IMG/VR virus record: IMGVR_UViG_3300038808_000030
Span: 1 to 55,131 of that record
DNA from: a virus
Lineage: Duplodnaviria > Caudoviricetes
DNA length: 55,131 nt
Strand: one strand, 5' to 3'
Shown here: positions 3,876-33,488 of the stretch, in pieces
Position numbering within the stretch: position 1 is the stretch's first letter
How the letters are laid out: each line of letters opens with the position of its first letter
Translations under genes and position numbers: made by a program
The notes under the pieces: model-generated
Seen by the model: only the letters and a program-made list of their open reading frames with translations
Database searches by the model: none
Told to the model about the DNA's origin: nothing

Positions 3876-4633
3876 GCTGCGCTCCTCGTTGCGGCGTTGA
3901 AGGCGATGAGGCCGGCGCGGTCGTGGGTCAGCGCAGCGCGGCCATCGCGGCAGCCTTTGTCAAATTCGTCCGTCCCGCGCACGCTGATGATGTAGTCCAC
4001 CCAGCCCTGGGCCAGTTCGGAGAGCGGCGCCGCCGCGCCGCCCTGGCCGTCGTCATCCTCCCCGGCCTCGGCCACGCCCGTAATTTGCTTGAGCGTGTGC
4101 CGCTGCAGGTAGGTCGTGGTGGAAATGATGGCCTGGATGGCGTTCTTGCCGCCTGTCTCGTCGGGCTGGGCCGTCAGTTGGACTGTCTCGGCATGGCCCA
4201 GGCGGTGCCGCAGCGTGCAGACCACGGTGATGTCGCGGCCGACCTGGTGCGTCTTCCACGACCAGGCGAAGCCATGAACGGAAAGCTCAGGGCCCACGGC
4301 CTGCACAACGTCGTCCAGCTCGGCATGCTTGTAGCTGGTCCTTCCGCCTTTGCTGGGAAAGTCCACCAGCTTTCGCTTCACGATGCGGATGTTCTTGGCC
4401 TTGAATGCGGCCAGGGCTTCGTTGTAGGCCTTCTCGGCCTCGTGGCGCTCGTTGCGCTCCAGCAGATCCATCATCTTCTCGATCTGGTCCGTAGCTGCGC
4501 CGCGCTCCTGCAGCATCAGCATGAAGTTGGCCGCGAGGGACGTGGGGAGCGCGGCGGGAATGGGGGCGGGCGCGGCGTCTGCAGCCGGCACCAGTTCAAG
4601 GGCTGCGGCTTCTTTCTGGGAAACGGCGTTCAT
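3872..4633 (-). CDS. ERF-family single-strand annealing protein
   Basis: YKHAELDDV, LRHRLGH, KNAIQAIISTTTYLQRHTL, EDDDG motifs. ATG 4633 preceded by GAGG. Confidence 0.88.
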   Translation of the reverse strand: MNAVSQKEAAALELVPAADAAPAPIPAALPTSLAANFMLMLQERGAATDQIEKMMDLLERNERHEAEKAYNEALAAFKAKNIRIVKRKLVDFPSKGGRTSYKHAELDDVVQAVGPELSVHGFAWSWKTHQVGRDITVVCTLRHRLGHAETVQLTAQPDETGGKNAIQAIISTTTYLQRHTLKQITGVAEAGEDDDGQGGAAAPLSELAQGWVDYIISVRGTDEFDKGCRDGRAALTHDRAGLIAFNAATRSAA

Positions 4634-13890: not shown

Positions 13891-14685
13891 ATGAAGAAGC
13901 AACCTGCCCGCAAGACCGCGAAGACCACCAAGGCCAAGGATGGTGCGGCACCGAAGAAACAGCACATCACCACGGAGGACCGGCACAGGGCCTTTGCGCG
14001 GGAGTATGTGGCCCTGGCCTTCAACGCAACGCAGGCGGCCATCGCGGCAGGCTACAGCGCTGCTACGGCGGCTTCGCAGGGTGCGCGCCTGTTGAGAGAT
14101 GCCAAGGTGCAGGCGTATGTGAAGGAGTTCAGCCAGGCGGCGGTCGCTCGGGCCGAGGTGCAGGCCGAGGACGTGGTGCGCCGGCTGAACGACATGCTGA
14201 TGGCCGACCCGCGCGACCTGGTTGAGGTCTACGTCTCCGCCTGCAGGCACTGCCACGGTGTGGCTCATGAGTACCAGTACACGCTGGCCGAGTACAATGC
14301 CAAGCGCGAAAAGTGGCTGGACGCAGGCAAGGCGCCCCAGGACTTCCCTGAGCTGGGCGGCGTGGGGTACGACGCGAACAAGCCGCCGGTGCCGGAATGT
14401 CCGGAGTGCTTTGGTGCGGGCCGGCCGCGCGCCATCCTCAAGGACACACGCACCATGCCGCGAGGCGCCCTGGCCCTGTTCGCGGGCGCCAAGGAAGGCA
14501 AGTACGGGCTGGAGATCAACGTGCACAGCCAGCTGGACGTGGCCGAGAAGCTGATGCGCTACCACGGGCTCTACAAGCGCGACAACGAGCAGCAGGGCGG
14601 CGGTAGCGGCGTGGGCCACTTCGAGGTGCATTTCGTGGATGCGCCGCCTCGTGAGAACGATCCGCGCGATGGGGAGGCCGCATGA
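13891..14685 (+). CDS. Terminase small subunit with Zn-finger insertion
   Basis: FAREY..NATQAAIAAGYS..TA..QGARLL; CRHCHG...CPECFG. Confidence 0.92.
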   Translation: MKKQPARKTAKTTKAKDGAAPKKQHITTEDRHRAFAREYVALAFNATQAAIAAGYSAATAASQGARLLRDAKVQAYVKEFSQAAVARAEVQAEDVVRRLNDMLMADPRDLVEVYVSACRHCHGVAHEYQYTLAEYNAKREKWLDAGKAPQDFPELGGVGYDANKPPVPECPECFGAGRPRAILKDTRTMPRGALALFAGAKEGKYGLEINVHSQLDVAEKLMRYHGLYKRDNEQQGGGSGVGHFEVHFVDAPPRENDPRDGEAA

Positions 14686-16055
14686 AGCTGCCACCGACAA
14701 ACCCCCGTCCGTCCATCCTCGCGTTGTCCCTGGACGCGGCCCTGGCCGGCGAGGACCTGGCGCCCGACTTTGCCGAAGACTACGAGGTAGACCGCGCGCG
14801 CGTCCGGGTGGAGTTCCCCGCCAAGCTACGCGGCCTGTGGCAGCCCAAGCGCTTCAAGGTCATGTACGGCGGGCGCGGCGGGGCCAAGTCCTGGTCTGTG
14901 GCGATGGCCCTGCTGGTGATGGGCAGCAACCGGCCGCTGCGCATCCTGTGCGCGCGCGAGATCCAGAAGTCCATGCGCGACTCGGTGCACCGCCTGCTGT
15001 CCGACCAGATCGCGGCTTTGGGCCTGGGCGGCTTCTACGAGGTGCTGGACACGGAGATTCGCGGCGCCAACGGCACGCTCATCCTGTTCGCGGGCCTGCA
15101 GAGCCACACGGTGGACTCGATCAAGTCCTATGAGGCCATCGACATCGTGTGGGTGGAAGAGGCCCAGAGCGTCAGCGCGCGCAGCTGGGAGGTGCTGGTG
15201 CCGACCATCCGCCGGCCTGGCTCGGAAATCTGGCTCACGCTGAACCCCGACCTGGCCACCGACGCCACCTATGCCCGGTTCATCGAGGCCGCCGACAGCG
15301 ACACCTGGCTGTGCGAAATCAACTGGCGGGACAACCCCTGGTTTCCGGAGGTGCTGGAGAAGGAGCGCCGCCGGCACTTCAAGCGCGACCCGGACACCTA
15401 CTGGAACGTCTGGGAGGGCCGCCCGAAGCGCACGCTGGCCGGCGCGATCTACGCGAAGGAGGTGGAGCGCCTTTACAACGACGACCGCGTGTGCCTGGTG
15501 CCCTACAACCCCAAGCTGCCCGTGCACACTGTCTGGGACCTGGGCTGGGCCGACAACATGGCCATCGCCTTCGTGCAGCGCACGGCCATGGATTTCCGAG
15601 TCATCAACTTCATGCAGGACAACCAGAAGACGCTGGAGTGGTACGTGGAGCAGATGGAAAAGCTGCCATACCGCTGGGGCACGGACTTCCTGCCACACGA
15701 CGGCGCCCACGGCGACTTCAAGACCGGGCAGACGGCCCAGCAGATCCTGGAGGACATGGGCCGCGAGGTGGAAGTGCTGGAGCGCGCGGGCCTGGAGTCG
15801 GGCATCCGCTTGGCGCGCGGCATCTTCTCCTCGGCCTACATCGATGCCCAGCGCTGCGCCAAGCTGCTGGACTGCCTGAGCCGGTACAAGCGCCAGATTG
15901 ACCCGCGCACGGGCGAGCCCGGGCCACCGCTGCACGACGACGCCAGCCACGGCGCGGACGTGTGGCGCTACATCAACATGGCCCTGCCGCTGATGGACAA
16001 CGACACTGCGGGCGCTGTGCCTCTCAGGCGACGCGCGGGCGGCATGGCACGCTGA
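14682..16055 (+). CDS. Terminase large subunit (PBSX family)
   Basis: YGGRGGAKS Walker A, CAREIQKS, WVEEA Walker B, TVWDLG, SHGAD. Confidence 0.96.
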   Translation: MKLPPTNPRPSILALSLDAALAGEDLAPDFAEDYEVDRARVRVEFPAKLRGLWQPKRFKVMYGGRGGAKSWSVAMALLVMGSNRPLRILCAREIQKSMRDSVHRLLSDQIAALGLGGFYEVLDTEIRGANGTLILFAGLQSHTVDSIKSYEAIDIVWVEEAQSVSARSWEVLVPTIRRPGSEIWLTLNPDLATDATYARFIEAADSDTWLCEINWRDNPWFPEVLEKERRRHFKRDPDTYWNVWEGRPKRTLAGAIYAKEVERLYNDDRVCLVPYNPKLPVHTVWDLGWADNMAIAFVQRTAMDFRVINFMQDNQKTLEWYVEQMEKLPYRWGTDFLPHDGAHGDFKTGQTAQQILEDMGREVEVLERAGLESGIRLARGIFSSAYIDAQRCAKLLDCLSRYKRQIDPRTGEPGPPLHDDASHGADVWRYINMALPLMDNDTAGAVPLRRRAGGMAR

Positions 16056-16085: not shown

Positions 16086-16508
16086 ATGCCTGCATGTATC
16101 GACCTGCGCAAAGCGCACCTTCACCGCCAGCATGGGGACTTGCTGGCCGTCTACACCTGGATCAACGCCGAGCGCGCATTGGTCCTGATTCCCGCCTATC
16201 GCCCCAAAGCCCCGTGGTACGTGGTGATGGAGAGCGCGGCCTATCTCTACGATGACCCCGCCTACCTGGCCCGCGCCTGCGTCAAGGCCTGCGAGGTGCT
16301 GGGCATAGAGCCCAACCGGCCGAACTGGGTGCGTGTGGCCACCATCGTCAACGAGGGCCTGCCCGACCTGGTGAGCATGCCCAGCGAACCCACATGGCAG
16401 CGCGCGGGCCAGGAGTTCGGCACGCTGGTGGTCAAGTCCGATGGCAAGGAAATCGCGGCCGAGGCCCTGACCATCCCGGACCTGGGGGCCGAATATGTCC
16501 CAGCTTGA
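16086..16508 (+). CDS. Conserved-looking phage protein between terminase and portal
   Basis: 140 aa, strong codon bias, own promoter motif. Confidence 0.75.
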   Translation: MPACIDLRKAHLHRQHGDLLAVYTWINAERALVLIPAYRPKAPWYVVMESAAYLYDDPAYLARACVKACEVLGIEPNRPNWVRVATIVNEGLPDLVSMPSEPTWQRAGQEFGTLVVKSDGKEIAAEALTIPDLGAEYVPA

Positions 16509-18831
16509 GGCCCGCTTCAACCGCCGCGCGGGCGTGGGCGAGCGCATCCTGAACGACGTGCCGCTGGAGTTCGACGCTGACGAGGAGGCGCCGCCGCACC
16601 CGCTGGACCAGCCCGAGGCCCGCAAGACCCTGCGCAAGCTCCTGAGCTGGTACTACCGTGAGCGCGAGATCCAGGCCGAGAACCGCCTGCAGATGTCCAT
16701 CGACGCCGACTACTACGACGGCGACCAGTGGGACCCGGCCGATGCGGCCACGCTGGAGGAGCGCGGCCAGGTGCCCCTGGTGTTCAACGAGGTGGCGGTG
16801 ATGTGCGACTGGCTCATTGGCACGGAGCGCCGCGCGCGCGTGGACTGGAGCGTGCTGCCGCGTGCCGAGGACGACGTGCAGCTGGCCGACGTGAAGACCA
16901 AGGTGCTCAAGTACGTCAGCGACGTGAACCGCACCACATTCAACCGCTCGCGCGCCTTCGAGGACACCGTGAAGGTGGGCGTGGGCTGGGTGGACTCCGG
17001 CGTGCGCAACGACCCCACCAAGGACATCATCTACGACAAGTACGAGGACTGGCGCAATGTGCTCTGGGACTCGATGGCCATGGAGCCGGACCTGAGCGAT
17101 GCGCGCTACCTGTTCCGCACGCGCTGGGTGGACGAAGACGTGGCCATCACCATGTACCCGCAGCGCCGCGACGTGCTGGAGCGGGCCGTGCTGCGCGAGG
17201 AGGAGTTCAGCGCCCAGCAGTGGGCCGAAGATGAATTCTTCTTTCAGGGCCACACCAGCGAGCGCCACGTCAGCGGCACCAGCGGCAGCTACCTGGCCGG
17301 CGGGCGCGGCAACATCGACAGCGAGGCACGGCGCCGCGTGCGCCTGATCGAGTGCCAGTTCCGCATGCCGGCGTCCGTCCAGGTGGTGACCAGCGGCCCC
17401 TTCAAGGGCTCGTTCGTGGAGCCCTGGGATCATGCGCTGCGCGCCGTGGTGGGTGCGCACGGCGGTTCCATCGTGGAGCGTGTCGCCATGCGCATGCACG
17501 TCGCGGTCTTCACCGAGGGCCATCTGCTGGCACTGGGCCCAACGCCCATGCGCCACAACAGTTTCAGCCTGACGCCCATCTGGTGCTACCGGCGCGGCCG
17601 CGACCGCATGCCCTACGGCGTGGTGCGCCGCGTGCGCGATCTGCAGATGGACATGAACAAGCGGGCCAGCAAGGCGCTGTTCCTGCTGTCCACGAACCAG
17701 ATCTTTGCGGAGAAGGGCGCCTTCGATGACATCAACGAGGCGCGCGAGGAGGTCAACCAGCCGGACGGCGTGGTGATCTACAAGGCCGGCAAGAAGTTCG
17801 AGGTCCACCGCGACAGCGAGATGGCCGCCGGCCAGGTGCAGATGATGACGATGGACGGCCAGGCCATCCAGAAGTCCGCAGGCATCAGCGACGAGAACCT
17901 GGGCCGGCGCACCAATGCCGTCAGCGGCCGTGCGATCGAGGCCCGCCAGCTGCAGGGCTCGGTCGTGACCACGCAGCCCTTCGACAACCTGCGCTTCGCC
18001 GTGCAGATCCAGGGCGAGAAGCTGCTGAGCCTGGTGGAGCAGTGGTACACGGAGGAGAAGGTCATTCGCCTGTCCGGCCACAAGGGCCGTCTGGACTGGG
18101 TGAAGGTCAACCAGCCCGAGGTCCAGCCAGACGGAAGCGTGCGCTACCTGAACGACATCACGTCCAGCATGGCCGACTTCGTGGTGTCCGAGCAGGACTA
18201 TTCGGGCACGTTGCGCCAGGTCATGTTCGAGAGCCTGAACCAGCTGGCGGGCCGTCTGCCACCCGAGGTGGCCATCCGCATCATGACGCTGGCCATGGAG
18301 TATTCGGACCTGCCGAACAACGACCTGGTGGCCGACGAGCTGCGCAAGCTCACCGGCGAGCGCGACCCCAACAAGCCCCTCACGCCCGAGGAGCAGCAGC
18401 AGGTCCAGCAGCAGATGCAGGCCCAGGCCGAGGCCCTGCAGATGCAGCAGGAGAGCGCGCGCCAGGCGCTGGCCGAGCAGCAGGCCAAAGTCCGGGAGAT
18501 CAATGCCCGTGCGGAGAAGCTGGAAGCCGAGGCCGAGCAGCTGCGCGCCGCTGGCGGAAACCCCGCGTTGGCACAGCAGATGGAAGGCGTGGCCGCCACC
18601 GTGCGCCGCGACGCGGACATGGAGCTGGACGAGCTGCGCCGCAAGCTGGCCAAGACCCAGGCCGACCTGGCCAACAAGACGCTGCAGATCAAGGGCGACC
18701 AGGACGTGCGTCTGCAGGTGGCCCACATCGAGGCCGACTCGCGCGAGCGCGTGGCCCAGATCCAAGCCCAGAGCCGCCAAACGCTCGACGCCATGTCGGG
18801 CCGGCTGAACCAATTCGACAACAAGGACTGA
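16495..18831 (+). CDS. Portal protein, P22-like (podovirus)
   Basis: DYYDGDQW, PLVFNE, YGVVRRVRDLQMDMNKRASK, NAVSGRAIEARQLQG; C-terminal Gln-rich coiled coil. Confidence 0.92.
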   Translation: MSQLEARFNRRAGVGERILNDVPLEFDADEEAPPHPLDQPEARKTLRKLLSWYYREREIQAENRLQMSIDADYYDGDQWDPADAATLEERGQVPLVFNEVAVMCDWLIGTERRARVDWSVLPRAEDDVQLADVKTKVLKYVSDVNRTTFNRSRAFEDTVKVGVGWVDSGVRNDPTKDIIYDKYEDWRNVLWDSMAMEPDLSDARYLFRTRWVDEDVAITMYPQRRDVLERAVLREEEFSAQQWAEDEFFFQGHTSERHVSGTSGSYLAGGRGNIDSEARRRVRLIECQFRMPASVQVVTSGPFKGSFVEPWDHALRAVVGAHGGSIVERVAMRMHVAVFTEGHLLALGPTPMRHNSFSLTPIWCYRRGRDRMPYGVVRRVRDLQMDMNKRASKALFLLSTNQIFAEKGAFDDINEAREEVNQPDGVVIYKAGKKFEVHRDSEMAAGQVQMMTMDGQAIQKSAGISDENLGRRTNAVSGRAIEARQLQGSVVTTQPFDNLRFAVQIQGEKLLSLVEQWYTEEKVIRLSGHKGRLDWVKVNQPEVQPDGSVRYLNDITSSMADFVVSEQDYSGTLRQVMFESLNQLAGRLPPEVAIRIMTLAMEYSDLPNNDLVADELRKLTGERDPNKPLTPEEQQQVQQQMQAQAEALQMQQESARQALAEQQAKVREINARAEKLEAEAEQLRAAGGNPALAQQMEGVAATVRRDADMELDELRRKLAKTQADLANKTLQIKGDQDVRLQVAHIEADSRERVAQIQAQSRQTLDAMSGRLNQFDNKD

Positions 18832-21347: not shown

Positions 21348-22064
21348 ATGCATCAGTCCCTTTCCCTCCGTAGCCAGCTGGCCCTGGCCATGATTTCGGC
21401 CGCCGGTGCCGCCATCGCCGACTCTCCCAAACGTGCGGAAGATATCGCCAAGGGCATCCAGCGTGCTCTCGACGTGCTGTCCCCCACTCTCGGCGATACC
21501 GCGCCCTCGCCCTGCAGCACCCCCACCTCGCCAGCAGCTGGCTGCGCCTGTGCATCCGGCAGCTGTGCCCATGACTCCAGCTGTGCCGTGCACAACGAAC
21601 CCGCGTTGCCAGCGGGCCCGTGCGACTGCCCAGGCAGTGGCCGATACACGTTCACGGTTGACGGCGCGGGTGTCGGCCTGGCCGGGGCCTACATGAAGGA
21701 CGGGGTTCTGCGCTTGCGGTTCAACCCTGTATTCGACGTAGCGGGCAGTCTGGGTCTCGGTCGAAATCACGTTCGTGCGCAGGCCAAGTCTTCCTTGGAG
21801 GCGGCTGCTGAAAAGTACCAGCAGGCATGTGACCTGGTGCGCGACCTGCAATCCAAGTCCAGCGAAACCAACCATGTGATGGCCAAGCTGCAGTCTGAGC
21901 TGCGCAGGGCTCATGAGGCCAAGGAGGAAGCCACCGAGGCGCTGCACGCAGCCGCTGCTGCCGGTGAATCCATCCCCGGTGGTGCCCGCATTGCCGCGCA
22001 GTGCGGCATCACGGCCGCTGTCATGCAGTCCATGCAGTCCGTGCATGGCCAGTCCAACCAGTAA
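21348..22064 (+). CDS. Hypothetical protein with Cys/His-rich motif and coiled coil
   Basis: CAHDSSCAVHNEPALPAGPCDC. Confidence 0.65.
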   Translation: MHQSLSLRSQLALAMISAAGAAIADSPKRAEDIAKGIQRALDVLSPTLGDTAPSPCSTPTSPAAGCACASGSCAHDSSCAVHNEPALPAGPCDCPGSGRYTFTVDGAGVGLAGAYMKDGVLRLRFNPVFDVAGSLGLGRNHVRAQAKSSLEAAAEKYQQACDLVRDLQSKSSETNHVMAKLQSELRRAHEAKEEATEALHAAAAAGESIPGGARIAAQCGITAAVMQSMQSVHGQSNQ

Positions 22065-22081
22065 TTTCGGAGTTCCACACA

Positions 22082-23056
22082 ATGAGCAATCCCAACGACG
22101 ACGACCACCTGCGCCTCCTGTCCGACGCCGAGCGCGAGGCCATGGAAGCCGACGAAAACGACTACGACCCCGAGGAAGACAACGCAGCAGCGCTGGCTGC
22201 CCTGGGGCGCGGCCCCCTCGATGCGGGAGAGGAAGAAGAGGGCGACGACGACGCGGCTGACGCGGGCAAGGGCAAGGCCGAGCCCACCGAACCCACGGAC
22301 ACCACCGCTGCGCCCGCTGCAGCGCCTGCAGCCGCTCCTGCCGCAGCACCCGCAGAACCCGCCGACGCAACGCAGCCGACCGATGCGCCGGCACCGAGTC
22401 CGCAGGCTGCCCCACAGCCCACCGGCTACCGTGCGGACCTGCCCGCCGACTACGACGCCCAGGTGAAGGCCAACAAGGACGCCGTGGCAGCCGCGCGCGC
22501 GAAGTTCAACGAGGGCGAGCTGGAGCAGCCCGAGCTGGACGCGGAGCTGGACCGCCTGCAGGACGAGCGCGACCAGCTGCGCGACATGAAGACGCGGGCC
22601 ACGGTGTCGGCCGAGATGCAGCAGCAGTCCACGCACCAGGCCTGGAACACCACCATCAACGGCTTCTTCGAAGAAGCGGCCAAGAGCGCAGAGCTGGGCA
22701 TCGTGGACTACCGCAAGGACGCGGCCAAGCAGGCGGATCTGGACGCCATGGTGCGCGCGCTGGGCGCGGCGCCGGGCAATGAGCACAAGCCCATGCGCTG
22801 GTTCCTGGAAGAAGGGCACCGCCGCGTGGTGGCCCTGCACGGCATTGCCACAACCAAGAAGCCGGCGGACGTTCGGCGCAAGCCTGACGCCTCGGCTGTG
22901 GTCACCAACCTGGCCGACGTGCCCGGTGGCGCGGGCGATGCCGATCCCGTGAGCGATGAGTTTGCCGAGCTGGACAAGCTGGAGGGCCTGGACTACGAGC
23001 GCGCGCTGGCTGGCATGTCCGAGGAAAAGCGTGATCGCTACAACCGCCTGGGCTGA
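22082..23056 (+). CDS. Capsid scaffolding protein (putative)
   Basis: Acidic Pro/Ala-rich N-terminus, helical core; upstream of capsid. Confidence 0.75.
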   Translation: MSNPNDDDHLRLLSDAEREAMEADENDYDPEEDNAAALAALGRGPLDAGEEEEGDDDAADAGKGKAEPTEPTDTTAAPAAAPAAAPAAAPAEPADATQPTDAPAPSPQAAPQPTGYRADLPADYDAQVKANKDAVAAARAKFNEGELEQPELDAELDRLQDERDQLRDMKTRATVSAEMQQQSTHQAWNTTINGFFEEAAKSAELGIVDYRKDAAKQADLDAMVRALGAAPGNEHKPMRWFLEEGHRRVVALHGIATTKKPADVRRKPDASAVVTNLADVPGGAGDADPVSDEFAELDKLEGLDYERALAGMSEEKRDRYNRLG

Positions 23057-23066
23057 CCCCGCCGCC

Positions 23067-23270
23067 ATGCCGTCCACTTCCTCTACCCCCGACGCGCGCC
23101 GCATCTTCGTGGAACTGCGCATGGGCGATGTGCTGGAGGTGGGCGGCGCCCGCATCCAGCTGGAATACAAGAAGGGGCAGGCCGCGCGCATGGTCGTCGT
23201 GGCCGCCCCTGAAACCACCGTCAAAAAGACACCGGCCGCGCTGCGGCCCGTACCAAGCCTGCCATCTTGA
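23067..23270 (+). CDS. CsrA/RsmA-like small RNA-binding protein
   Basis: IFVELRMGDVLEVGGARIQLEYKKGQAARMVVVAAPETTVKK follows the CsrA pattern (LxLxRRxGExLxIG..VxVxVL..KGxQVRIGVxAPxEVxVHR); alignment by eye. Confidence 0.65.
   Translation: MPSTSSTPDARRIFVELRMGDVLEVGGARIQLEYKKGQAARMVVVAAPETTVKKTPAALRPVPSLPS
23250..23268 (+). promoter_or_regulatory. Late promoter motif copy 4 (capsid)
   Basis: GTACCAAGCCTGCCAtctT, inside the 3' end of the CsrA-like gene. Confidence 0.75.
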
Positions 23271-23284
23271 GGGCTGGAACATTT

Positions 23285-23330
23285 TTCAACCGGGGCGCTG
23301 GAGTGCTCGCTACCACACAGGAGCACTCCT
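23285..23330 (+). promoter_or_regulatory. Capsid 5' UTR element: GGA-loop hairpin versus SD-sequestering hairpin
   Basis: GGGCGC-TGGA-GTGCTC hairpin; alternatively GGAGTGCTC (23300-23308) pairs perfectly with GAGCACTCC (23321-23329). Confidence 0.65.
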
Positions 23331-24446
23331 ATGGGCAAAACAGTGGTGGGCGTGAACAGCCCCCGCGCCGTCAAGCGCTTTTCCGGCAACCTGGCACTCG
23401 ATGTGTCGCAGGCCTCGTACTTCGGCAAGCGCTTCGCGGCCGTGGGCCAGGGCGCCAAGACCCCTCTCCAGCTGCTGACGGATCTGGAATCCGAAGCCGG
23501 CGACCTCATCAGCTATGACCTGCTGGCCGAGCTGCGCATGGCGCCTGTCGAAGGCGACGATGTGCTGGAAGGCAAGGAAGAGGGCCAGCGTTTCTACACC
23601 GATGAGCTGTACATCGACCAGGCGCGTGCCGGCGTCAACACGGGCGGCCGCATGTCGCGCAAGCGCACGCTGCACGACCTGCGCATGCGCGCCAAGCAGC
23701 AGCAGTCCAGCTGGTGGGGCCGCTTCCAGGACGAACTGACCTTCACCTACCTGGCGGGCTCGCGCGGCATCAATGCCAACTTCATTCTGCCCTTCGGCTA
23801 CCAGGGCCGCGCCAAGAACCCGCTGACGGCGCCCACGGCCAACCAGCACCTGTTCGGCGGTGACGCCACTGCGGTGACCAACCTGGACGCGACCGACAAG
23901 ATGTCGCTGGCCGTGGTGGACCGCGCTCGCGTGCGTGCTGACAGCCAGGGCGGTGGCGCCACCAACATCCCCGTCATGCAGCCCTGCGTGGTCGATGGCG
24001 AGGAAGTGTTCGTCATGGTCATGCACACCTTCCAGGAAGACGACCTGCGCAAGGAAACCGGCACGGGCGGTTGGCTGGACCTGCAAAAGGCTGCAGCGGC
24101 GTCCGTGGGCTTCAAGTCGCCGCTGTTCAAGAGCGCGCTGGGCATGTACCGCAACGTGATCCTGCACTCGCACCGCAACGTGATCCGCCACAACACCCAT
24201 GGCGCCACGGGCGACCTGGAGACGGCGCGCGCGCTGTTCATGGGTGCCCAGGCCGGCGTGATCGCCTTCGGCTCGCCGGGCACCGGCATGCGCTACGGCT
24301 GGCACGAGGAAACGGCCGACCGTGGCAACCAGGTCATCATCACCACGTCGTCCATCTTCGGTGTGAAGAAGACCGTCTTCGAGGTCGAAGGCGAAAAGCA
24401 GGACCACGGCGTCTACGGCTGCGATACCGCCGCTGCCTCGCGCTGA
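23331..24446 (+). CDS. Major capsid protein (N4-gp56/DUF4043-type)
   Basis: 371 aa; DLESEAGDLISYDL, LEGKEE, IDQAR, RKRTLHDLR, RALFMGAQA. Confidence 0.9.
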   Translation: MGKTVVGVNSPRAVKRFSGNLALDVSQASYFGKRFAAVGQGAKTPLQLLTDLESEAGDLISYDLLAELRMAPVEGDDVLEGKEEGQRFYTDELYIDQARAGVNTGGRMSRKRTLHDLRMRAKQQQSSWWGRFQDELTFTYLAGSRGINANFILPFGYQGRAKNPLTAPTANQHLFGGDATAVTNLDATDKMSLAVVDRARVRADSQGGGATNIPVMQPCVVDGEEVFVMVMHTFQEDDLRKETGTGGWLDLQKAAAASVGFKSPLFKSALGMYRNVILHSHRNVIRHNTHGATGDLETARALFMGAQAGVIAFGSPGTGMRYGWHEETADRGNQVIITTSSIFGVKKTVFEVEGEKQDHGVYGCDTAAASR

Positions 24447-24475
24447 TCCACCCCACCGAATAGAAGGAGTCAGAC

Positions 24476-24925
24476 ATGGCTTTTAAGCAACTCAGTGCCG
24501 TGGCCGCAGGCCATCAGGCCCCCATCACCCCCGGCGGCTCCGAGCTGGTGCGCTCGCGCTTCGGCCAGCCACTGGCCGTGGCAGACCACGCAGTCGGCGC
24601 CCGTGGCGTCATCGGCATCCTGCCCGCCGGCACGCTGCCCGTGTCCCTGTTCATCCGCGTGCCTGCCGCCTTGGGCGCGGGCTTCAAGGCCTCCATCGGC
24701 CTGGCGGATGCGGCCGGCGACATCAGCGCTGCGGCCGACGACGGCGGCGGTGCCTGGGTGACAGACAACGACGCGGGCGCGGCCGGCGGCTATGTGTACC
24801 TGGTGCCCGCAGCCTTTGCCAAGCTGGTGCCCAAGGACGAAGACCGCCGCATCGTCCTGAAGGTCACAGGCGCGGGCACGGCCGCAGGCCTCTTCGCCCT
24901 GGACCTGATCTACACGAACGCCTGA
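24476..24925 (+). CDS. Putative capsid decoration/virion protein
   Basis: AAGGAG RBS; beta-rich 149 aa directly after capsid. Confidence 0.65.
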   Translation: MAFKQLSAVAAGHQAPITPGGSELVRSRFGQPLAVADHAVGARGVIGILPAGTLPVSLFIRVPAALGAGFKASIGLADAAGDISAAADDGGGAWVTDNDAGAAGGYVYLVPAAFAKLVPKDEDRRIVLKVTGAGTAAGLFALDLIYTNA

Positions 24926-24937
24926 CAGCGTGTGCGC

Positions 24938-24986
24938 GCCCCGCAAGGGGCTTTCCCCCGGTGGCATCCGCTGCCGGGGCTTTTTG
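24938..24986 (+). terminator. Double hairpin/terminator after head genes
   Basis: GCCCC-GCAA-GGGGC then CCCCGGTGGC/GCTGCCGGGG plus T5. Confidence 0.6.
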
Positions 24987-25006
24987 AACCCCGGAGAACC
25001 ATCACC

Positions 25007-25390
25007 ATGAAGCTGTTCACTTCGCTGCCCGCACGCAAGGACGGAACCCTGATCGTGCGCCTCAAGGGCGCCACCTATGTCTTCAATGGCAAGCCGCTGG
25101 CCTGCGACGTTGAGGACGAGGCAGATGCCAAGCACCTGCTGGCCCGCAACTTCCAGACCGAAGAGGAGTTCGAGGCCGAGCAGAAATTCCTGCGCATGTC
25201 TGCCGAGCGCGAAGCCCGCCGTGCAGCCCAGGACGGCAAGGCCCCGTCCTCGCGCGGCACCTTCTCGCCTGGCGTGGGCCCGGACGATGACGACGACCTG
25301 GACGGCGGCACGGGCATGCCCCAGGAATCCGACTCGGCCCCCACCGGCCGCGTGCGCAAGGCCTCGCGCGCTTCCAACGTGACCGGCTGA
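25007..25390 (+). CDS. Hypothetical virion-associated protein
   Basis: GGAG RBS; MKLFTSLPARKDG... Confidence 0.7.
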   Translation: MKLFTSLPARKDGTLIVRLKGATYVFNGKPLACDVEDEADAKHLLARNFQTEEEFEAEQKFLRMSAEREARRAAQDGKAPSSRGTFSPGVGPDDDDDLDGGTGMPQESDSAPTGRVRKASRASNVTG

Positions 25391-25397
25391 TCGCACC

Positions 25398-26015
25398 ATG
25401 GCCTCCTGGGAGAACTGGATGCCGGAGCTGGTCCTGGCCGCCCCCAAGGCGCCGGTACCGCTCATTCACCTGGCGCTGAACCGTGCCGCGCGCACGTTCC
25501 TCAAGGCCACGCGCGCCTGGCAGGAGTGGCTGGACCCTACGGACGTGACCGGCGAGGCCTTCGCCGAATACACCTTCGAGCTGCCCCAGGGCGCCGAGCT
25601 GCTGCGCCTGGAGCGCGCCACGCTGGCCGGGCGCCCGCTGGAGTTGGCCAAGGCGCGCGACCTGCCGGCCGATCCCTGGCAGCACGAGCTGCGCGGCAAG
25701 CTCTATCTGGTCACGACGAACCTGCGCGAATTCACAGTGCGCACGGGCAGCGCGGGCCGGCTGCAGGTCTACGTCTCGCTCATGCCGTCCCTGCGCGGCA
25801 ACAGCGTGCCTGACGAGGTGGCGTCGCTCTACCACGAAGCGATCCGCGAGGGCGCCAAGGCCGAGCTGCTGGCCACCGAGGGCACGGACTACTACAAGCC
25901 CGACCAGGCCGGCGTGGCCCTGGCATTCTTCACTCGCGCCATGGATGACGCCACGGCCGACGTGTGGCGCTCCAACACCAGCCGCGGCTCGCGGGGGAGG
26001 GCGTCATGGCTTTGA
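25398..26015 (+). CDS. Putative head-tail adaptor protein
   Basis: Position; AARTFLKATRAWQE...YHEAIREGAKAELL pattern. Confidence 0.65.
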   Translation: MASWENWMPELVLAAPKAPVPLIHLALNRAARTFLKATRAWQEWLDPTDVTGEAFAEYTFELPQGAELLRLERATLAGRPLELAKARDLPADPWQHELRGKLYLVTTNLREFTVRTGSAGRLQVYVSLMPSLRGNSVPDEVASLYHEAIREGAKAELLATEGTDYYKPDQAGVALAFFTRAMDDATADVWRSNTSRGSRGRASWL

Positions 26016-26638
26016 CCGTGGCCCAGCTGCTGGACGATGCAGCGCGCGACCTGCAGGACAAGGGGCATATCCGCTGGACCCGCGCGGATCTGCTGGACTG
26101 GTTCAACGCGGCGCAGCGCGCTTTTGCCGAGCAGCGGCCCGACCAGATGGCCCAGCCGCGCGACCTGGTGCTGGCCGCCGGGTGGCGGCAGGAGCTGCCG
26201 GCCGACGTGCTCACGCTGATCGACATCACCAACAACGCCAACGCCACGCAGCGGCGCATCACCAAGACCGACCTATGGGTGCTGGACGCCGTGGCCGGCG
26301 CCTGGCGCTCTGGCTCTCCGGGCCGTGAGGTGCAGCACTACATGCACGACCTGGGCACGCCCCAGGAGTTTCTGGTCTATCCGCCCGTGGCCGCCGGCAC
26401 CAAGGTGCGCGCGGTGCTGGGTGTCGCGGCCGTGGACCTGGCCGACGAAAACGGCACGCCCTCGGTGCCTGAGCGCTGGATGGACGCGCTGCGGCACTTC
26501 GTGCTGTTCCGGGCCTGGTCCATCGACGCCGAGTTCGGCGGCAACGCCACCATCGCGGCGGCGCACCGCGCCCTCTACAACGAGGCGCTGGGCATTCAGG
26601 CCCAGGCTGCGGCCACCACGGCCGTGGCCCAGAAGTGA
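26006..26638 (+). CDS. Putative adaptor protein (DUF6682-like)
   Basis: LQDKGHIRWTRADLLDWFNAAQR, FLVYPP, ALRHFVLFRAWSIDAE. Confidence 0.7.
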   Translation: MALTVAQLLDDAARDLQDKGHIRWTRADLLDWFNAAQRAFAEQRPDQMAQPRDLVLAAGWRQELPADVLTLIDITNNANATQRRITKTDLWVLDAVAGAWRSGSPGREVQHYMHDLGTPQEFLVYPPVAAGTKVRAVLGVAAVDLADENGTPSVPERWMDALRHFVLFRAWSIDAEFGGNATIAAAHRALYNEALGIQAQAAATTAVAQK

Positions 26639-26639
26639 A

Positions 26640-26690
26640 CCAAGCCTGCCATCCTGGCGGGCATCTTCAATCGGGGCGCTGGAGTGCTCG
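26640..26690 (+). promoter_or_regulatory. Late promoter motif copy 5 plus second copy of the 25-nt UTR element
   Basis: CCAAGCCTGCCAtccT at 26640; TTCAATCGGGGCGCTGGAGTGCTCG at 26666-26690 (24/25 identical to 23285-23309). Confidence 0.75.
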
Positions 26691-26707
26691 AAGCCAAAGG
26701 AGCCGTC

Positions 26708-27124
26708 ATGGCTGGTTTCAGCACATCCCTCGCCAACGCGATCATCAGCGCCACGCTGCGCAAGCAGGCCTTCCCGGCCATCCGCAACGCCTACTTCGCC
26801 CTGTTCACGGCCGACCCTACCGACGCCTTCACCGCCGGCACCGAAGTGGCCGCACCCTGGTACCAGCGCGTGGCCACGGGCGCCTTTGCCGCTCCCAACA
26901 ACGGCGCCACCTACAACGCCGTGCGTGCGGAGTTCCCGCCCGTCACAGGCGCCCAGGTCACGGTCACTCACATCGGGATCATGGAAGGTGATTCGGCCAC
27001 CGATGGCACGGCCACGCTCATGTATTCCGAGCCGCTGCCATCGCCGCGCACGCTGCAGATCAACGACGTGTTCGTGGTGGACAGCCAGGCGCTGACTGGC
27101 GACTTCACGCTGCAGCTGCTGTAA
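26708..27124 (+). CDS. Virion structural protein (fibre-associated)
   Basis: YFALFTADPTD, EVAAPWYQR, VTHIGI motifs; AAGGAG RBS. Confidence 0.75.
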   Translation: MAGFSTSLANAIISATLRKQAFPAIRNAYFALFTADPTDAFTAGTEVAAPWYQRVATGAFAAPNNGATYNAVRAEFPPVTGAQVTVTHIGIMEGDSATDGTATLMYSEPLPSPRTLQINDVFVVDSQALTGDFTLQLL

Positions 27125-27127
27125 GCC

Positions 27128-28174
27128 ATGAACCGGGGCGCTCTCAACGGGTTCGCACTCAACGGCCGGTCAGCCGACCCCGTGGTGCGCATCCGCGTGG
27201 ACGCCAAGGGCTATGCCCGCGTCCGCGTGGGCGGGCGCGTGCTCGCCTATGCCGTAGTGCACTCGGCCCCCGCTGCTGCGCTGACGGGCCCGCTGGGCCG
27301 TGTGCACGCCAAGCTCTCGGCGGACTCTGTGGCGCGGGCGGCCGTGGAGGGCGTGCTGGGCCGGATTCACGTCCGCAGCCTGTTGGCGGCCACCGGCCGC
27401 GCGGTCCTCAAGGTCACGCTGCCGCCGGTCTACGGGCGCGTGGTGGCCAAGGCCACGGCCCGGGCCACCGTCAACGCCCATGTGCTGGCACGCAGCCCCG
27501 TGGCGGCCGCGCTGCAGGCGCAGTTCTCCCCCCAGACGCACCTGCTGCGTCGCGGCCCTGTGCAGTCCGCTCCGGCGGCGCGCGGCAAGGCGGATGGGCA
27601 GATCTACGTGCGCCGCTGGCTGCGCTCGCCCGTGGACGGCAAGGGCCAGGCCTTTGTCGTCACGCAGGGCCGCGTCGAGGCGCGGCTGGCCGTGCTGGCC
27701 CAGGGCCTGGCGCGCGGCGCCGTCGATCCGCACCGCCTGGTGCGCGCGCCGCTCGCGGCCCAGGGCGTGGCCTTCATCGACATCGACCCGGCCGTGCACA
27801 GGCGCCTGCCCTTCGATGAGGCAGCGCCCGAATCCCGAACCTTCCTCGTGCCCGCAGGAATGACCACCTTCTACGTTACCGACCAAGGGCAGAGCATGTT
27901 CCGTGCATCCCCCATGCAGCCTGCAGACACGCAGGACTACGACATCGAGTTCGCCGACTGGTTTCCGCCTGGCGACGAGATTGTTTCTGTCGAACTCAAG
28001 GTGCGCCCGGCAATGCCCATGCCCCCGTCCTATGCCTTCGTGGGCCAGCGCGTGAAGGTCTGGATCTACGCGGGCGGCGCCGATGGCCAGAAGTACCAGG
28101 TCAGCGTGGCCGCCACGACCAACGACGGCCGCACCAAGGAGGTGGAGCTGATCGTGCCCATCAAGGAAAAATAG
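27128..28174 (+). CDS. Virion protein with C-terminal fibre-adaptor-like domain
   Basis: N-terminal ALNGFALNG; C-terminal QPADTQDYDIEFADW...TTNDGRTKEVE. Confidence 0.7.
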   Translation: MNRGALNGFALNGRSADPVVRIRVDAKGYARVRVGGRVLAYAVVHSAPAAALTGPLGRVHAKLSADSVARAAVEGVLGRIHVRSLLAATGRAVLKVTLPPVYGRVVAKATARATVNAHVLARSPVAAALQAQFSPQTHLLRRGPVQSAPAARGKADGQIYVRRWLRSPVDGKGQAFVVTQGRVEARLAVLAQGLARGAVDPHRLVRAPLAAQGVAFIDIDPAVHRRLPFDEAAPESRTFLVPAGMTTFYVTDQGQSMFRASPMQPADTQDYDIEFADWFPPGDEIVSVELKVRPAMPMPPSYAFVGQRVKVWIYAGGADGQKYQVSVAATTNDGRTKEVELIVPIKEK

Positions 28175-30908: not shown

Positions 30909-33488
30909 ATGACCACCTACAAGCTGTCCGCATTCCCGGGCGAGGCGCCCAGCGTGTCCGACCGCGCGCTGGGCGCTAACTTCGCCCGGGAGCACTTCAA
31001 TCTCTTTCTGCCCAGCTCCGAGTTCTGGCCGCTGGCCACCGACCGGCGCCACTCGGCATGTCTGGCCGGCACCCGCACGCTGCACCGCTTCGCGCGCGAT
31101 GCCAGCGGCGCCGTGCAGCAGAACCCGGCCGCGCCCATCCGCTCCTGGGTGCAGGAGCTGTCCCTGGTCAAGGGCCAGATCAACGACGAGGCCACCGAGC
31201 GCACCTACCAGACCACCAACGATGGCAGCGCAGCGCCGCGTGCGCTGGACGTGCGCGGCAACGACCGGATGCTGGGCGTGGTGCGCCCGGTCAAGCCCAC
31301 GGTCACGCTGCAGGTGGTGGACGAGTTCACCAACGAGGAGGCCAAGACCTGGCTGTATGGCGACTTCGCCGAGCTGGTGCGCGCGGATCTGCTGGCCACG
31401 GTGATCCAGCACGAGGGCCGCCAGGAGGCCATCCGCTGGGATGCCAATGGCAAGGCTTATGCCGGCGCCACATCCAACTACGGGCTGTCCCTGTCTACCG
31501 CCGTAGGGGCCGGCGCCTGGGCTGGGAATCTCTATGCCGTGGTGTCGGCCGCTCGCGCCAAGGCCTGCGAGATGGACACCACGCGGCTGGGCGCCGTCAG
31601 CACCGCCAGCGGCTGGGCCGTGCCGGTGGCCGCCATGCCGTACAGCTACCCGTTTCGCCGGCCCGCGCTGGTGGAAGCACTGCAGCGGCACGAGTTTCCG
31701 GACACGGCCGGCGAGCGCTCCGGCGAAACCGTGCTCACGGCCGACCAGGCCGCCAAGCTGGCCGACCTGGTGGAGGAGGCCGTGGCCCCGGGCACCAAGT
31801 GCGCCAACTGGCGCAGCGAGCTGGACAAGCTGGTGAAGGAGTTCGCCGACCTGGGCCTGGCCAAGGCCTGGGCCACGCCCGGCACCGCGCCCGTGAAGCC
31901 CAGCGAGCCCAAGGCCGCGCAGTACTACTTCGACTCCGACAACAACGCGATCGAGCACGCCGACTGGGTGCAGTACCGGCGCGACCTGGAGGCCTACTAC
32001 AAGGCCCTGGACACCTACACGGAAGGCAAGACGGCTGCCACATCCCAGGCGGCCAGCCTGAATGCCCGCATGGTGGAGATCCAGCAGCGCTGCAGCACGT
32101 TGGTGTCCAGCATCCAGACCCAGCTGGCCAGCCAGTACATCGCAGCCACGGGCGACACGGCCGTGATCGGCACTTGGCTGGACCAGCTGGGCGGCGTGGC
32201 CGACCTGGCCGGCAAGACCGTGGAGCGCGTGGTGGACTCGCGCTTCTACGTCGTGGCCTTTGTGACCGACTGGGGCGAGGAGTCCGAGCCGTCGCCCATC
32301 TCCGAGATGCTGGAGGTGGACCAGAATGACACCGTGACCATCCAGCGGCCCCAGGCCATGACGGGGGAGCAGCATGCCGCGCGCCATGTCGTGAAGTGGC
32401 GCATCTACCGCAGCAACGCCTCGGCCGCAGCTGCGGCCTGGCAGCTGGTGCAGGAGCTGCAGATCTCCGTGGCCAGCTTCCTCGATGACAAGAAGGGTGA
32501 GGAGCTGGACAGCCTGCAGCCGCAGTTCACCTGGGCCGCGCCGCCGTACCGCATGGACAGCCAGTACGAGGGCGACAACAAGCCCAGCGTGGGCGCCAAT
32601 CCCTACCTGCGCGGGCTCACGGGCATACCCAACGGCATCATGGCCGGCTTCATCGACAACACCGTGGCCTTCTGCGAGCCCTACGTGCCCTACGCCTGGC
32701 CCGTGGACTACCAGGTCACGACCGAATGGCCCATCGTGGGCATGGCCGTGTTCGACCAGACCCTGTTCGTGGGCACGGCCGGCAATCCGTACTTCGTGAC
32801 AGGCGCGCACTCGGCGCAGATGTCGGCCATCAAGCTGGACAGCAACCAGTCCTGCAGCGCACGTCGCTCCATCGTTCCCGTGCAGGGCGGCGTGCTCTAT
32901 GCCTCGCCAGATGGCCTGTGCCTGGCCAGCCCGGGCGGCGTGCAGGTGGTCACGCGGCAGCTGATCGCGCGCCAGGACTGGCAACGCATGCAGCCGGCCA
33001 GCATGTTCGCGGCCGAGCACGAGGGCGTGTACTACCTGTTCTACGCCGGGGCCGGCGGCGGCTGCCTGGCGTTCAGCGCGCAGGACGGGGCCAAGCTCGG
33101 CCATACCGACCTGGGCGGCGCGGGTGTGACGGCGGTCTGGGTGGACCGCTTCAACGACCTCATGTACGTGGCGCGCGGCCAGGACATCCTGGAATGCTTC
33201 ACGGGCGAGTCGCTGCGCACGGCGCGCTGGCGCACAGGCCTGGCCACCCAGGGCCAGCAGCTGCCGCTGGCCTGGGCCAAGGTCTACGGCCTGCAGGACG
33301 CCCAGCACCCGATCACCCTGCGCCTGTGGGGCGACGGCCAGCTGCAGCACACGGCCCGGTTCACCGACCTGCAGCCGCAGCGCCTGCCGCCCGGGCGCTG
33401 GCTGGAGCACCAGGTGGAAATCGAGGGCGCGGCCCGCGTCACCAGCGTGGTGCTGTGCTCGACCACTGAGGAGCTGCGCAGCGTATGA
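30909..33488 (+). CDS. Podovirus tail nozzle/stabilisation protein (beta-propeller type) with helical insertion
   Basis: FPGEAP, YVVAFVTDWGEESEPSP, FCEPYVPYAWP, GVLYASPDGL. Confidence 0.75.
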   Translation: MTTYKLSAFPGEAPSVSDRALGANFAREHFNLFLPSSEFWPLATDRRHSACLAGTRTLHRFARDASGAVQQNPAAPIRSWVQELSLVKGQINDEATERTYQTTNDGSAAPRALDVRGNDRMLGVVRPVKPTVTLQVVDEFTNEEAKTWLYGDFAELVRADLLATVIQHEGRQEAIRWDANGKAYAGATSNYGLSLSTAVGAGAWAGNLYAVVSAARAKACEMDTTRLGAVSTASGWAVPVAAMPYSYPFRRPALVEALQRHEFPDTAGERSGETVLTADQAAKLADLVEEAVAPGTKCANWRSELDKLVKEFADLGLAKAWATPGTAPVKPSEPKAAQYYFDSDNNAIEHADWVQYRRDLEAYYKALDTYTEGKTAATSQAASLNARMVEIQQRCSTLVSSIQTQLASQYIAATGDTAVIGTWLDQLGGVADLAGKTVERVVDSRFYVVAFVTDWGEESEPSPISEMLEVDQNDTVTIQRPQAMTGEQHAARHVVKWRIYRSNASAAAAAWQLVQELQISVASFLDDKKGEELDSLQPQFTWAAPPYRMDSQYEGDNKPSVGANPYLRGLTGIPNGIMAGFIDNTVAFCEPYVPYAWPVDYQVTTEWPIVGMAVFDQTLFVGTAGNPYFVTGAHSAQMSAIKLDSNQSCSARRSIVPVQGGVLYASPDGLCLASPGGVQVVTRQLIARQDWQRMQPASMFAAEHEGVYYLFYAGAGGGCLAFSAQDGAKLGHTDLGGAGVTAVWVDRFNDLMYVARGQDILECFTGESLRTARWRTGLATQGQQLPLAWAKVYGLQDAQHPITLRLWGDGQLQHTARFTDLQPQRLPPGRWLEHQVEIEGAARVTSVVLCSTTEELRSV

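Follow-up and report, generated by a model that had tools for sequence, protein, structure and literature searches.

Phages carry genes of the CsrA family under names such as 'CsrA-like transcriptional regulator' (BcepIL02 gp49), 'carbon storage regulator' (NK-7) and 'CsrA-like regulator' (Itty13, LASTA, Parlo and PEp14), and the available part of Sobrero and Valverde 2020 lists phage CsrA in its Table 3 for GP4, DC1, Bcep22, BcepIL02, BcepMigl, PEp14 and others (PMC7366521). As far as the accessible text of the relevant papers goes, the JC1 gene is treated as a moron and one peptide of its product occurs in virions (PMC9144972), knock-down of the csrA homologue of PTXU04 gives smaller plaques only (PMC11879866), and the protein is assigned no RNA target (PMC7366521, PMC9144972, PMC11879866). 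Here we analysed a 67-residue CsrA-like open reading frame (ORF), together with a short hairpin, termed H1, that lies between it and the major capsid gene, in IMG/VR virus record IMGVR_UViG_3300038808_000030, a stretch of 55,131 bases with an estimated completeness of 76% (the window). At a probability of roughly 0.5, H1 is the RNA operator of this protein, set in a bistable capsid leader and served by a CsrA-family dimer of the phage's own.

The window gene occupies the same scaffold-to-capsid position as the CsrA-like genes of BcepIL02 (gp49), Bcep22, DC1, JC1 (gp47), GP4, NK-7, Itty13, LASTA, SopranoGao, Parlo, PEp14 and Skulduggery, and cultivated phages with such genes have the same H1 in their capsid leaders. 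The syntenic genes directly precede the capsid gene, except in NK-7, where two inserted genes lie between. Homologues of the NK-7 protein occur in 49 phage records and of the LASTA protein in 12, and a hidden Markov model of our family alignment (A2, see below) matches the BcepIL02 and NK-7 proteins with E-values of 5.5e-13 and 6.7e-14. Both synteny and homology place the ORF among the phage CsrA-like regulators of Bcep22/GP4-like podophages. The window clade, which comprises Comamonadaceae prophages, is more diverged than the cultivated representatives: the protein has no Pfam match of its own, its close relatives are named 'hypothetical protein', and it has a proline-rich tail that overlaps a promoter-like motif. 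This motif is not of the sigma-70 type, whereas the cultivated phages show sigma-70-like boxes at inspection by eye. The original prediction for this DNA was aware of no described phage CsrA with a cognate RNA switch. Phage CsrA homologues are in fact described and routinely annotated, while the RNA element does appear undescribed: neither H1, nor its cis-linkage to a CsrA-like gene, nor a covarying Shine-Dalgarno (SD) partner was found in Rfam or in the open-access literature searched. The protein extends a known phage family by a new and diverged member, and the conserved RNA element is the likely novelty.

With bacterial CsrA, RsmA and RsmE (PF02599; structures 1y00, 1vpz, 2bti and 2jpp), the window protein shares a length near 65 residues, five strands, a predicted interleaved dimer and profile homology; its candidate ligand likewise offers one GGA in the loop of a hairpin and another in the SD. 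It differs in that no C-terminal helix is predicted, a lysine takes the place of R44, and the gene lies beside its presumed target; in addition, no sponge RNA was seen, relatives tolerate loops without GGA, and five hosts have no Pfam CsrA match. In the E. coli ymdA leader, CsrA is reported to activate translation by preventing an SD-sequestering hairpin. As in ymdA, the predicted anti-SD strand of the capsid leader overlaps the presumed regulator site, here the loop and 3' arm of H1, the difference being that this strand is one half of a conserved GGA-presenting hairpin. The MS2 coat protein, which binds the replicase hairpin, and T4 RegA are phage proteins that act on translational operators as repressors. 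Shared with these are the small size of the phage protein, the placing of a short hairpin operator at a ribosome-binding site and control over structural or late protein output; the protein families are unrelated, and the putative window operator lies upstream of the SD in a two-state leader. Lastly, the CsrT of a Legionella integrative and conjugative element and plasmid csrA alleles are also CsrA-family genes on mobile elements, thought to serve the element, but their hosts have a Csr/Rsm network of their own and the available text describes no cis-linked operator for them (PMC7366521).

H1 and its alternative helix

The 25-mer TTCAACCGGGGCGCTGGAGTGCTCG at 23285-23309 recurs at 26666-26690 with one mismatch, so that the 24/25 repeat reported originally stands; with up to 3 mismatches allowed, the window holds no further match, and none appeared in 100 shuffled sequences. 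The likeness of the two leaders reaches upstream to a 13-mer, CAAGCCTGCCATC, at 23254-23266 and 26641-26653. The hairpin named in the original prediction, GGGCGC-UGGA-GUGCUC (H1), folds on its own at -6.3 kcal/mol. That the leaders serve virion proteins also holds, since they precede the capsid gene and a head-fibre gene of the GP4 gp80 type.

In the capsid leader, GGAGUGCUC (23300-23308), comprising the 3' half of H1, pairs at 9 of 9 positions with GAGCACUCC (23321-23329), which overlaps the SD AGGAG at 23319-23323. This alternative pairing, proposed beforehand, coincides with the minimum-free-energy fold of the leader, at -20.6 kcal/mol compared with -14.7 kcal/mol when H1 is enforced, and the computed probability of H1 is about 0. 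The SD bases GGAG (23320-23323) are predicted unpaired with probabilities of 0.41, 0.00, 0.00 and 0.00. The predicted folds contain, in other words, an SD-sequestering helix that overlaps the candidate regulator site, the arrangement of an anti-sequestration leader. The leader of the gene starting at 26708 behaves differently: H1 dominates (P 0.98), the SD is mostly open and no alternative SD pairing is predicted, leaving both of its GGAs, in the H1 loop and in the SD, exposed and 18 nt apart. Because this leader has no alternative helix, the two-state switch that had been proposed is upheld for the capsid leader only.

To place H1 in a wider context, we compared the window with related viral loci (designated by L-numbers such as L018, L026 and L146). 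The core GCGC-N4/5-GUGC is present within 110 nt upstream of the capsid start in nearly all of 52 such loci, the general form being NNGCGC-N4/5-GUGCNN, and the hairpin was found in the capsid leaders of all 15 lineages examined, nine of them cultivated phages (NK-7, BcepIL02, PBC5, Mwe-JY25, Itty13, LASTA, Skulduggery, Parlo and PEp14). In L146, H1 is identical at 16 of 16 positions (GAGCGC-AGGA-GUGCUC) despite a capsid protein identity of 32%. ORF and H1 occur together in 30 of the 32 non-redundant loci that were found through the capsid protein alone, the exceptions being L032, with neither, and L035, with H1 only; adding loci found through the motif, a set biased towards it, brings the count to 68/72. 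L032 was considered as a case of co-loss and set aside: its scaffold-csrA-leader segment is swapped for two minus-strand ORFs (L032:3196-3845), and because one deletion explains both losses it offers no independent support. The two ORFs, by eye, are presumably HicA/HicB-like, and the locus, with portal and capsid genes retained, is probably a degraded prophage. Searched for exact copies of GRGCGCWGGAGTGCTC, IMG/VR gave at least 119 stretches, and 80 loci among the matches listed were classified. They hold 89 occurrences of the motif, 60 of which precede capsid (40) or head-fibre, gp80-like (20) homologues; a further 15 precede other ORFs and 14 no ATG-started ORF, some of the latter being capsid leaders whose gene starts with TTG or whose contig is cut.

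Pairing within H1 is well maintained, with 94.4% of pair cells paired in 15 representative sequences, as against 24-61% when the 3' partner is slid. Three inner pairs, one of them a G-U, are invariant and one pair varies on one side only, while the two outer pairs of the six change on both sides (G-C to C-G, A-U to U-G) and Parlo adds a C-G at the second pair. The check for covariation in related phages that had been suggested was thus borne out in the two outer pairs and, as described next, in the SD partner. The loops seen are UGGA, AGGA, UGAA, AUGA, AGGAG, AGGAU, UGGAU, AAGAC and AUGAC, of which only '..GA' is constant. No Rfam family matched at gathering score across the window, and none overlapped either H1 at E-values up to 10 within 23200-26760; weak Rfam matches at 24882-25012 sit on a terminator region.

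The alternative helix was followed in 47 distinct capsid leaders, each folded from H1 to the start codon; these are related sequences, not independent trials. In the best fold, 4 nt or more of the H1 3' arm are paired to sequence further downstream in 40 leaders and H1 is kept in 7, and enforcing H1 costs a median of 3.7 kcal/mol (range 0 to 15). Compared with 300 shuffles, the duplex that loop and 3' arm form with the remainder of the leader is stronger at p<=0.05 in 31/47 and at p<=0.01 in 24/47 of these related leaders. Compensatory variants of the partner were read by eye across lineages: GAAGUGCUC pairs with GAGCAUUUC in L026, GGAUGUGC with GCACAUCC in BcepIL02, AUGAGUGC with GCACUCAU in PBC5, extending to the start codon, GGAUGUGCGG with CCGCAUAUCU in Skulduggery, and CAAGACGUGCGG with CCGCACGUUCUUG in LASTA. 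The partner is the SD or the stretch from SD to AUG in most lineages, and ends beside the SD in LASTA and Skulduggery. These comparisons support the view that the hairpin and a predicted SD-occluding helix are conserved features of related phage leaders and not the result of chance.

H1 is also found with the CsrA-like gene outside the capsid context. L059, USP_25 and F116 share a second arrangement, with adaptor, CsrA-like gene, H1 and a 135-residue gene (phrog_644) in this order, the last being 84-87% identical between L059, USP_25 and Dartukuta. In L059, a 51-residue CsrA-like ORF is followed by GAGCGC-AGGA-GUGCUC (4448-4463) and then by GGAGCACUCC ahead of the start codon; in USP_25 and F116, H1 (GCGCGC-AUGA/AGGA-GUGCGC) is embedded in the 3'-terminal part of the CsrA-like ORF, with about 35 nt left to the next gene. 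USP_25 and Dartukuta have a further H1-like hairpin whose loop presents the SD GGAG of the following gene. In L033 (1422-1435) and L044 (2709-2722), the scaffold-position gene has its start codon in the loop, and its SD in the 5' arm, of an H1-like hairpin, AGCGC-AUGA-GUGCU, which suggests that some lineages place the scaffold gene, too, under this operator. No H1 is present in the short capsid leaders of three distant capsid relatives with no ORF at that place, F116, Vibrio K249 and a Traversvirus; for the last two, A2 finds no match in the entire record. The second H1 copy of the window clade occupies the post-adaptor position of this second arrangement. By these sequence comparisons, H1 accompanies the CsrA-like gene even ahead of a different target, a linkage that is independent of the capsid gene.

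Two further hairpins were observed. The capsid leader of L074 and L137 contains tandem H1s, GCGCGC-AGGA-GUGCGC followed by GAGCGC-AGGA-GUGCUC, ahead of a capsid gene that seemingly starts with TTG. In the window, a third H1-like hairpin, GUGCGC-UGGAC-GUGCGC, lies on the plus strand at 31240-31256, 330 nt into the internal virion protein gene; it matches the H1 covariance model at 31236-31260 (21 bits, rough E 0.009), the same sequence is present in L089, and it could be due to chance or be an internal site.

The CsrA-like protein

The CsrA-like ORF is conserved between the scaffold-position and capsid genes in relatives down to 62% capsid identity. Alignment A2, on which both the profile and the AlphaFold2 model are based, comprises 24 family sequences including the window protein. 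Against solved structures, the top 7 matches of the A2 profile are all CsrA, RsmA or RsmE chains (E 2e-5 to 3e-4), with the next match only at E 0.14; against 5.8 billion proteins, it gave 178 matches. Relatives that are 70-99% identical (Delftia, Hydrogenophaga) are named 'hypothetical protein', and those at greater distance contain PF02599 and are called CsrA. Taken individually, 8 of the 24 A2 members match PF02599, with a best E-value of 3.4e-7.

AlphaFold2 predicts five β-strands (residues 11-17, 22-25, 28-31, 40-46 and 52-55) with a mean predicted local distance difference test score (pLDDT) of 75.3; five consecutive strands in 67 residues fit the CsrA/RsmA pattern of five strands in about 60-75 residues, the β-strand pattern having been recognised in the original prediction. 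No C-terminal helix is predicted after strand 5, where a proline-rich tail is found instead. The C-terminal helix of CsrA is not known to be required for RNA binding, so its absence was not taken to exclude membership. When two copies were modelled, the homodimer score was 0.46 compared with 0.00 for the best control, on a scale where the mark for a homodimer was reached by 20/30 solved one-chain pairs and 1/23 single chains; at least 93% of contacts are common to the runs, and the partner pLDDT is at least 68. The inter-chain contacts of least predicted error join residues 12-17 to 40-45 and 22-25 to 52-55. CsrA dimers are interleaved, with strands 1 and 5 pairing with strands 4 and 2 of the other chain, and the contacts of the predicted dimer are those of such an interleaved homodimer.

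Residues R7 and R44 of E. coli CsrA, both basic RNA-contact residues, align by HMMER with R18 and K54 of the window protein. The R44 position is occupied by R, K, G, C, Q or H in relatives. A covariation of this residue with the loop (basic with GGA, non-basic without) was considered and rejected, being broken by Parlo (K, AAGAC), PEp14 (R, AUGAC) and Mwe-JY25 (R, AUGAC). Judged from sequence and profile, the 67-residue protein is a strongly diverged CsrA-family member belonging to the phage 'CsrA-like regulator' family. A PF02599 search at E<=0.01 found no match in any of five Comamonadaceae genomes that carry relatives of the phage, with control genomes as expected; the protein is therefore probably not for hijacking a host Csr network.

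The ORF starts 10 nt past the TGA of the scaffold-position gene (23054-23069) and no SD-like sequence is visible in the 10-nt gap, which suggests translational coupling to the scaffold gene. At the 3' end, the conserved C-terminal VPSLPS is encoded by the promoter-like motif (23250-23270). In the L018 group (L018, L022-L024 and L029), the same DNA is read in another frame (…ARTKPAIVKA), and there it seems to be the DNA or RNA motif, rather than the VPSLPS peptide, that is conserved.

A candidate operator and rival explanations

On the comparative evidence, we think it probable that a CsrA-like dimer binds H1, which would act as its cognate operator near the 5' end of the capsid and head-fibre mRNAs. 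In the more stable fold of the capsid leader, the loop and 3' arm of H1 would lie on the SD region and block ribosome binding; in the other fold, H1 would be formed and the SD free. We envisage that H1 forms first during transcription and is captured by the protein, so that the anti-SD strand would be occupied and capsid translation switched on by anti-sequestration; without protein, the leader would relax to the closed fold. Because the ORF lies 10 nt past the scaffold stop and has no SD, the level of the CsrA-like protein should follow scaffold translation, and capsid output would be coupled to the expression of scaffold and portal. That the protein activates the capsid leader is a tentative proposal, to which we give somewhat less than even odds. 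In leaders without the alternative helix, such as that of 26708, or with an SD or start codon in the H1 loop, binding would repress or fine-tune, and the two modes may coexist at different leaders.

Several observations weigh against these proposals. Since the 26708 leader has no alternative helix, activation is not the general mode. The covariation support consists of two outer pairs and few events, because the inner three pairs are invariant. GGA, the canonical determinant for CsrA and the binding site presumed in the original prediction, is not invariant, being replaced by UGAA, AUGA, AAGAC or AUGAC in lineages that retain the protein, and the R44-position residue, lysine in the window clade, does not track with the loop sequence across lineages. 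The 10-kb contig of L035 carries H1 but lacks a CsrA-like ORF, and in PBC5 the CsrA-like match that goes with H1 is distant and marginal (E 0.004). The structural comparison with CsrA that had been suggested came out in favour for the A2 profile and the predicted fold and dimer, but not for searches with the monomer model: Foldseek against the PDB returned no CsrA (best E 0.24, the YqeH GTPase), and the wide VIA-align search had no CsrA row (best Z 3.2). These misses are expected, because a domain-swapped dimer was queried as a monomer. The window protein alone has 0 Pfam matches, so that its family membership rests on the profile, and the dimer result may stem from the model's memory of solved CsrA dimers.

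The original prediction had left open whether the protein frees the SD or bridges to it. Canonical CsrA repression, in which a dimer would bridge the GGA of the H1 loop and that of the SD and so limit capsid and head-fibre synthesis, for instance to set the scaffold-to-capsid ratio, would account well for the 26708 leader, with its two predicted exposed GGAs 18 nt apart and no alternative helix, and for the H1-like loops that carry the SD GGAG in USP_25 and Dartukuta or the scaffold start codon in L033 and L044. The smaller plaques that the available text reports as the only effect of the PTXU04 knock-down also fit a tuner better than an essential activator (PMC11879866). For the capsid leader it fares less well: the protein-free fold already hides the SD, so that under a repressor both states of the leader for the most abundant virion protein would be OFF, and the conserved, covarying alternative helix would be left without a role. 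We consider repression as the overall explanation unlikely.

A different reading holds that H1 and the alternative helix work independently of the protein or are otherwise controlled (for instance as a 5' stabiliser, RNase target or kinetic translation timer, or under autogenous capsid or scaffold control), the CsrA-like protein being a 'moron' directed at host mRNAs or a virion component. Loops without GGA exist, L035 and PBC5 keep H1 with no ORF nearby, and the adjacency of the genes could be inherited synteny. A loop that presents GGA is, however, a classic CsrA ligand, ORF and H1 are adjacent in two different gene contexts, and the five hosts without a Pfam CsrA match give no sign of a Csr system to hijack. 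The published record points both ways, as the available text on JC1 calls the gene a moron and reports one virion peptide (PMC9144972), while Burkholderia hosts are reported, in the part of the review available, to have no chromosomal csrA (PMC7366521). On balance, independence from the protein appears quite unlikely. Far less probable again is a DNA operator, in which a dimeric transcription factor would recognise the 16-mer just past the promoter. As such a site might, the 16-mer forms an imperfect inverted repeat and follows promoter-like sequences at a fixed short distance, but it is always on the sense strand. Only as sense RNA do the wobble variants (A-U to G-U, G-C to G-U) and the invariant G-U remain paired, and this speaks against a DNA site; the downstream partner covaries with loop and 3' arm, for which a DNA site would have no need; and in F116 and USP_25 the element falls within coding sequence, ahead of the next start codon.

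Returning to H1 as the operator of the CsrA-like protein, we speculate that CsrA-like gene, H1 and anti-SD helix could form a portable, self-contained cassette that acts as an assembly-order checkpoint, in which a silent capsid mRNA would be opened only by a CsrA-family protein coupled in translation to the scaffold gene. Such a cassette would have been long kept and moved between targets (the capsid gene in Bcep22/GP4-like phages, the post-adaptor 135-residue gene in F116-like phages) in hosts apparently without Csr; in this full form, the idea is doubtful. Phage CsrA homologues are widespread yet annotated without a role, and the comparative evidence points to a cis-linked RNA target in the phage's own capsid leader. 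Because this target is common to easily handled cultivated phages, among them Skulduggery (on Pseudomonas fluorescens SBW25), Itty13, LASTA, Parlo and F116, the role of the homologues becomes directly testable. If the proposal is true, a CsrA-family regulator would be working where no host CsrA was found, and the compact protein-plus-RNA switch might be of use in synthetic biology.

Gene order and promoter-like motif

The region belongs to the structural module of a podophage whose relatives are the Bcep22, GP4 and PBC5 groups, and the gene order is terminase, portal, scaffold-position gene, 67-residue ORF, major capsid, virion proteins, adaptor, head-fibre and internal virion protein (Table 1). 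Its close relatives are prophages and contigs of Delftia, Comamonas, Acidovorax, Hydrogenophaga and Xylophilus, and the phage is a virus of Comamonadaceae bacteria.

Table 1. Features of the structural module and positions of H1 in the second arrangement (window coordinates unless a locus is named).
Feature	Position	Strand	Remarks
Terminase	14682-16052		
Portal	16495-18828		
Scaffold-position gene	22076..23056	+	phrog_8246, a family without assigned function; place as in BcepIL02, Itty13, LASTA, Parlo, PEp14
CsrA-like ORF	23067..23270	+	67 aa plus stop; ATG 23067, stop 23268-23270
Promoter-like 13-mer CAAGCCTGCCATC	23254..23266	+	within 3' end of CsrA-like ORF
H1 hairpin, capsid leader	23293..23308	+	GGGCGC-UGGA-GUGCUC; covariance model 26.9 bits (sequence in training set)
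Alternative helix (predicted)	23300..23329	+	23300-23308 with 23321-23329; excludes H1, overlaps SD
SD AGGAG, capsid gene	23319..23323	+	7 nt ahead of ATG
Major capsid gene, 371 aa	23331..24446	+	Pfam Phage_capsid_3 E 7.8e-58; phrog_334 major head protein E 2.9e-110
SU10-type adaptor	26006-26635		
Second promoter-like 13-mer	26641..26653	+	immediately past adaptor gene stop
H1 second copy	26674..26689	+	16/16 identical to first; 25.9 bits (in training set); without alternative helix
SD AGGAG, 26708 gene	26698..26702	+	predicted mostly unpaired; its GGA 18 nt past H1-loop GGA
Head-fibre-like gene, 138 aa	26708..27124	+	PF23140 'Podophage GP4 fiber I protein gp80' E 2.6e-30; phrog_240 head protein
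Internal virion protein gene	30909-33488	+	
H1 loci, second arrangement	L201 (F116) 1643-1658; L197 (USP_25) about 1968 and 2423; L198 (Dartukuta) about 2404		

The promoter-like motif has the form (C)CAAGCCTGCCA, in place of which relatives carry CAAGCATGGCA or CAAGCCGGGCA. AAGCCTGCCA occurs 7 times in the window, always on the plus strand and just ahead of gene starts (16064, 21302, 23254, 26641, 30887, 35837 and 39030), and the 13-mer has 9 matches at up to 2 mismatches where 3.17 are expected. At three of the seven sites (16064, 30887 and 35837), an ATG lies exactly 9 nt past the 13-mer with no SD, opening ORFs of 140, 859 and 136 residues at 16086, 30909 and 35859; by their sequence, these sites plausibly give rise to leaderless mRNAs. 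The recurring 13-mer is a plausible candidate for a late promoter. No sigma-70-type site was found in 22900-27200, the cultivated relatives having the boxes mentioned above instead of the 13-mer.

Contigs from four soil metatranscriptome runs of one study (X8, X9, X10 and X15) show 85-99% likeness to the window over 22000-27200. Their depth is flat, with no starts or ends; three of the four runs span 23014-23734 and a fourth 23014-24001. These contigs indicate that relatives are present in the samples, and neither transcription nor a 5' end follows from them. Lastly, a strong terminator-like hairpin with a T run is found on the plus strand at 24956-24979, after a gene for a 149-residue virion protein; a transcript from the presumed capsid promoter would therefore span two genes only.

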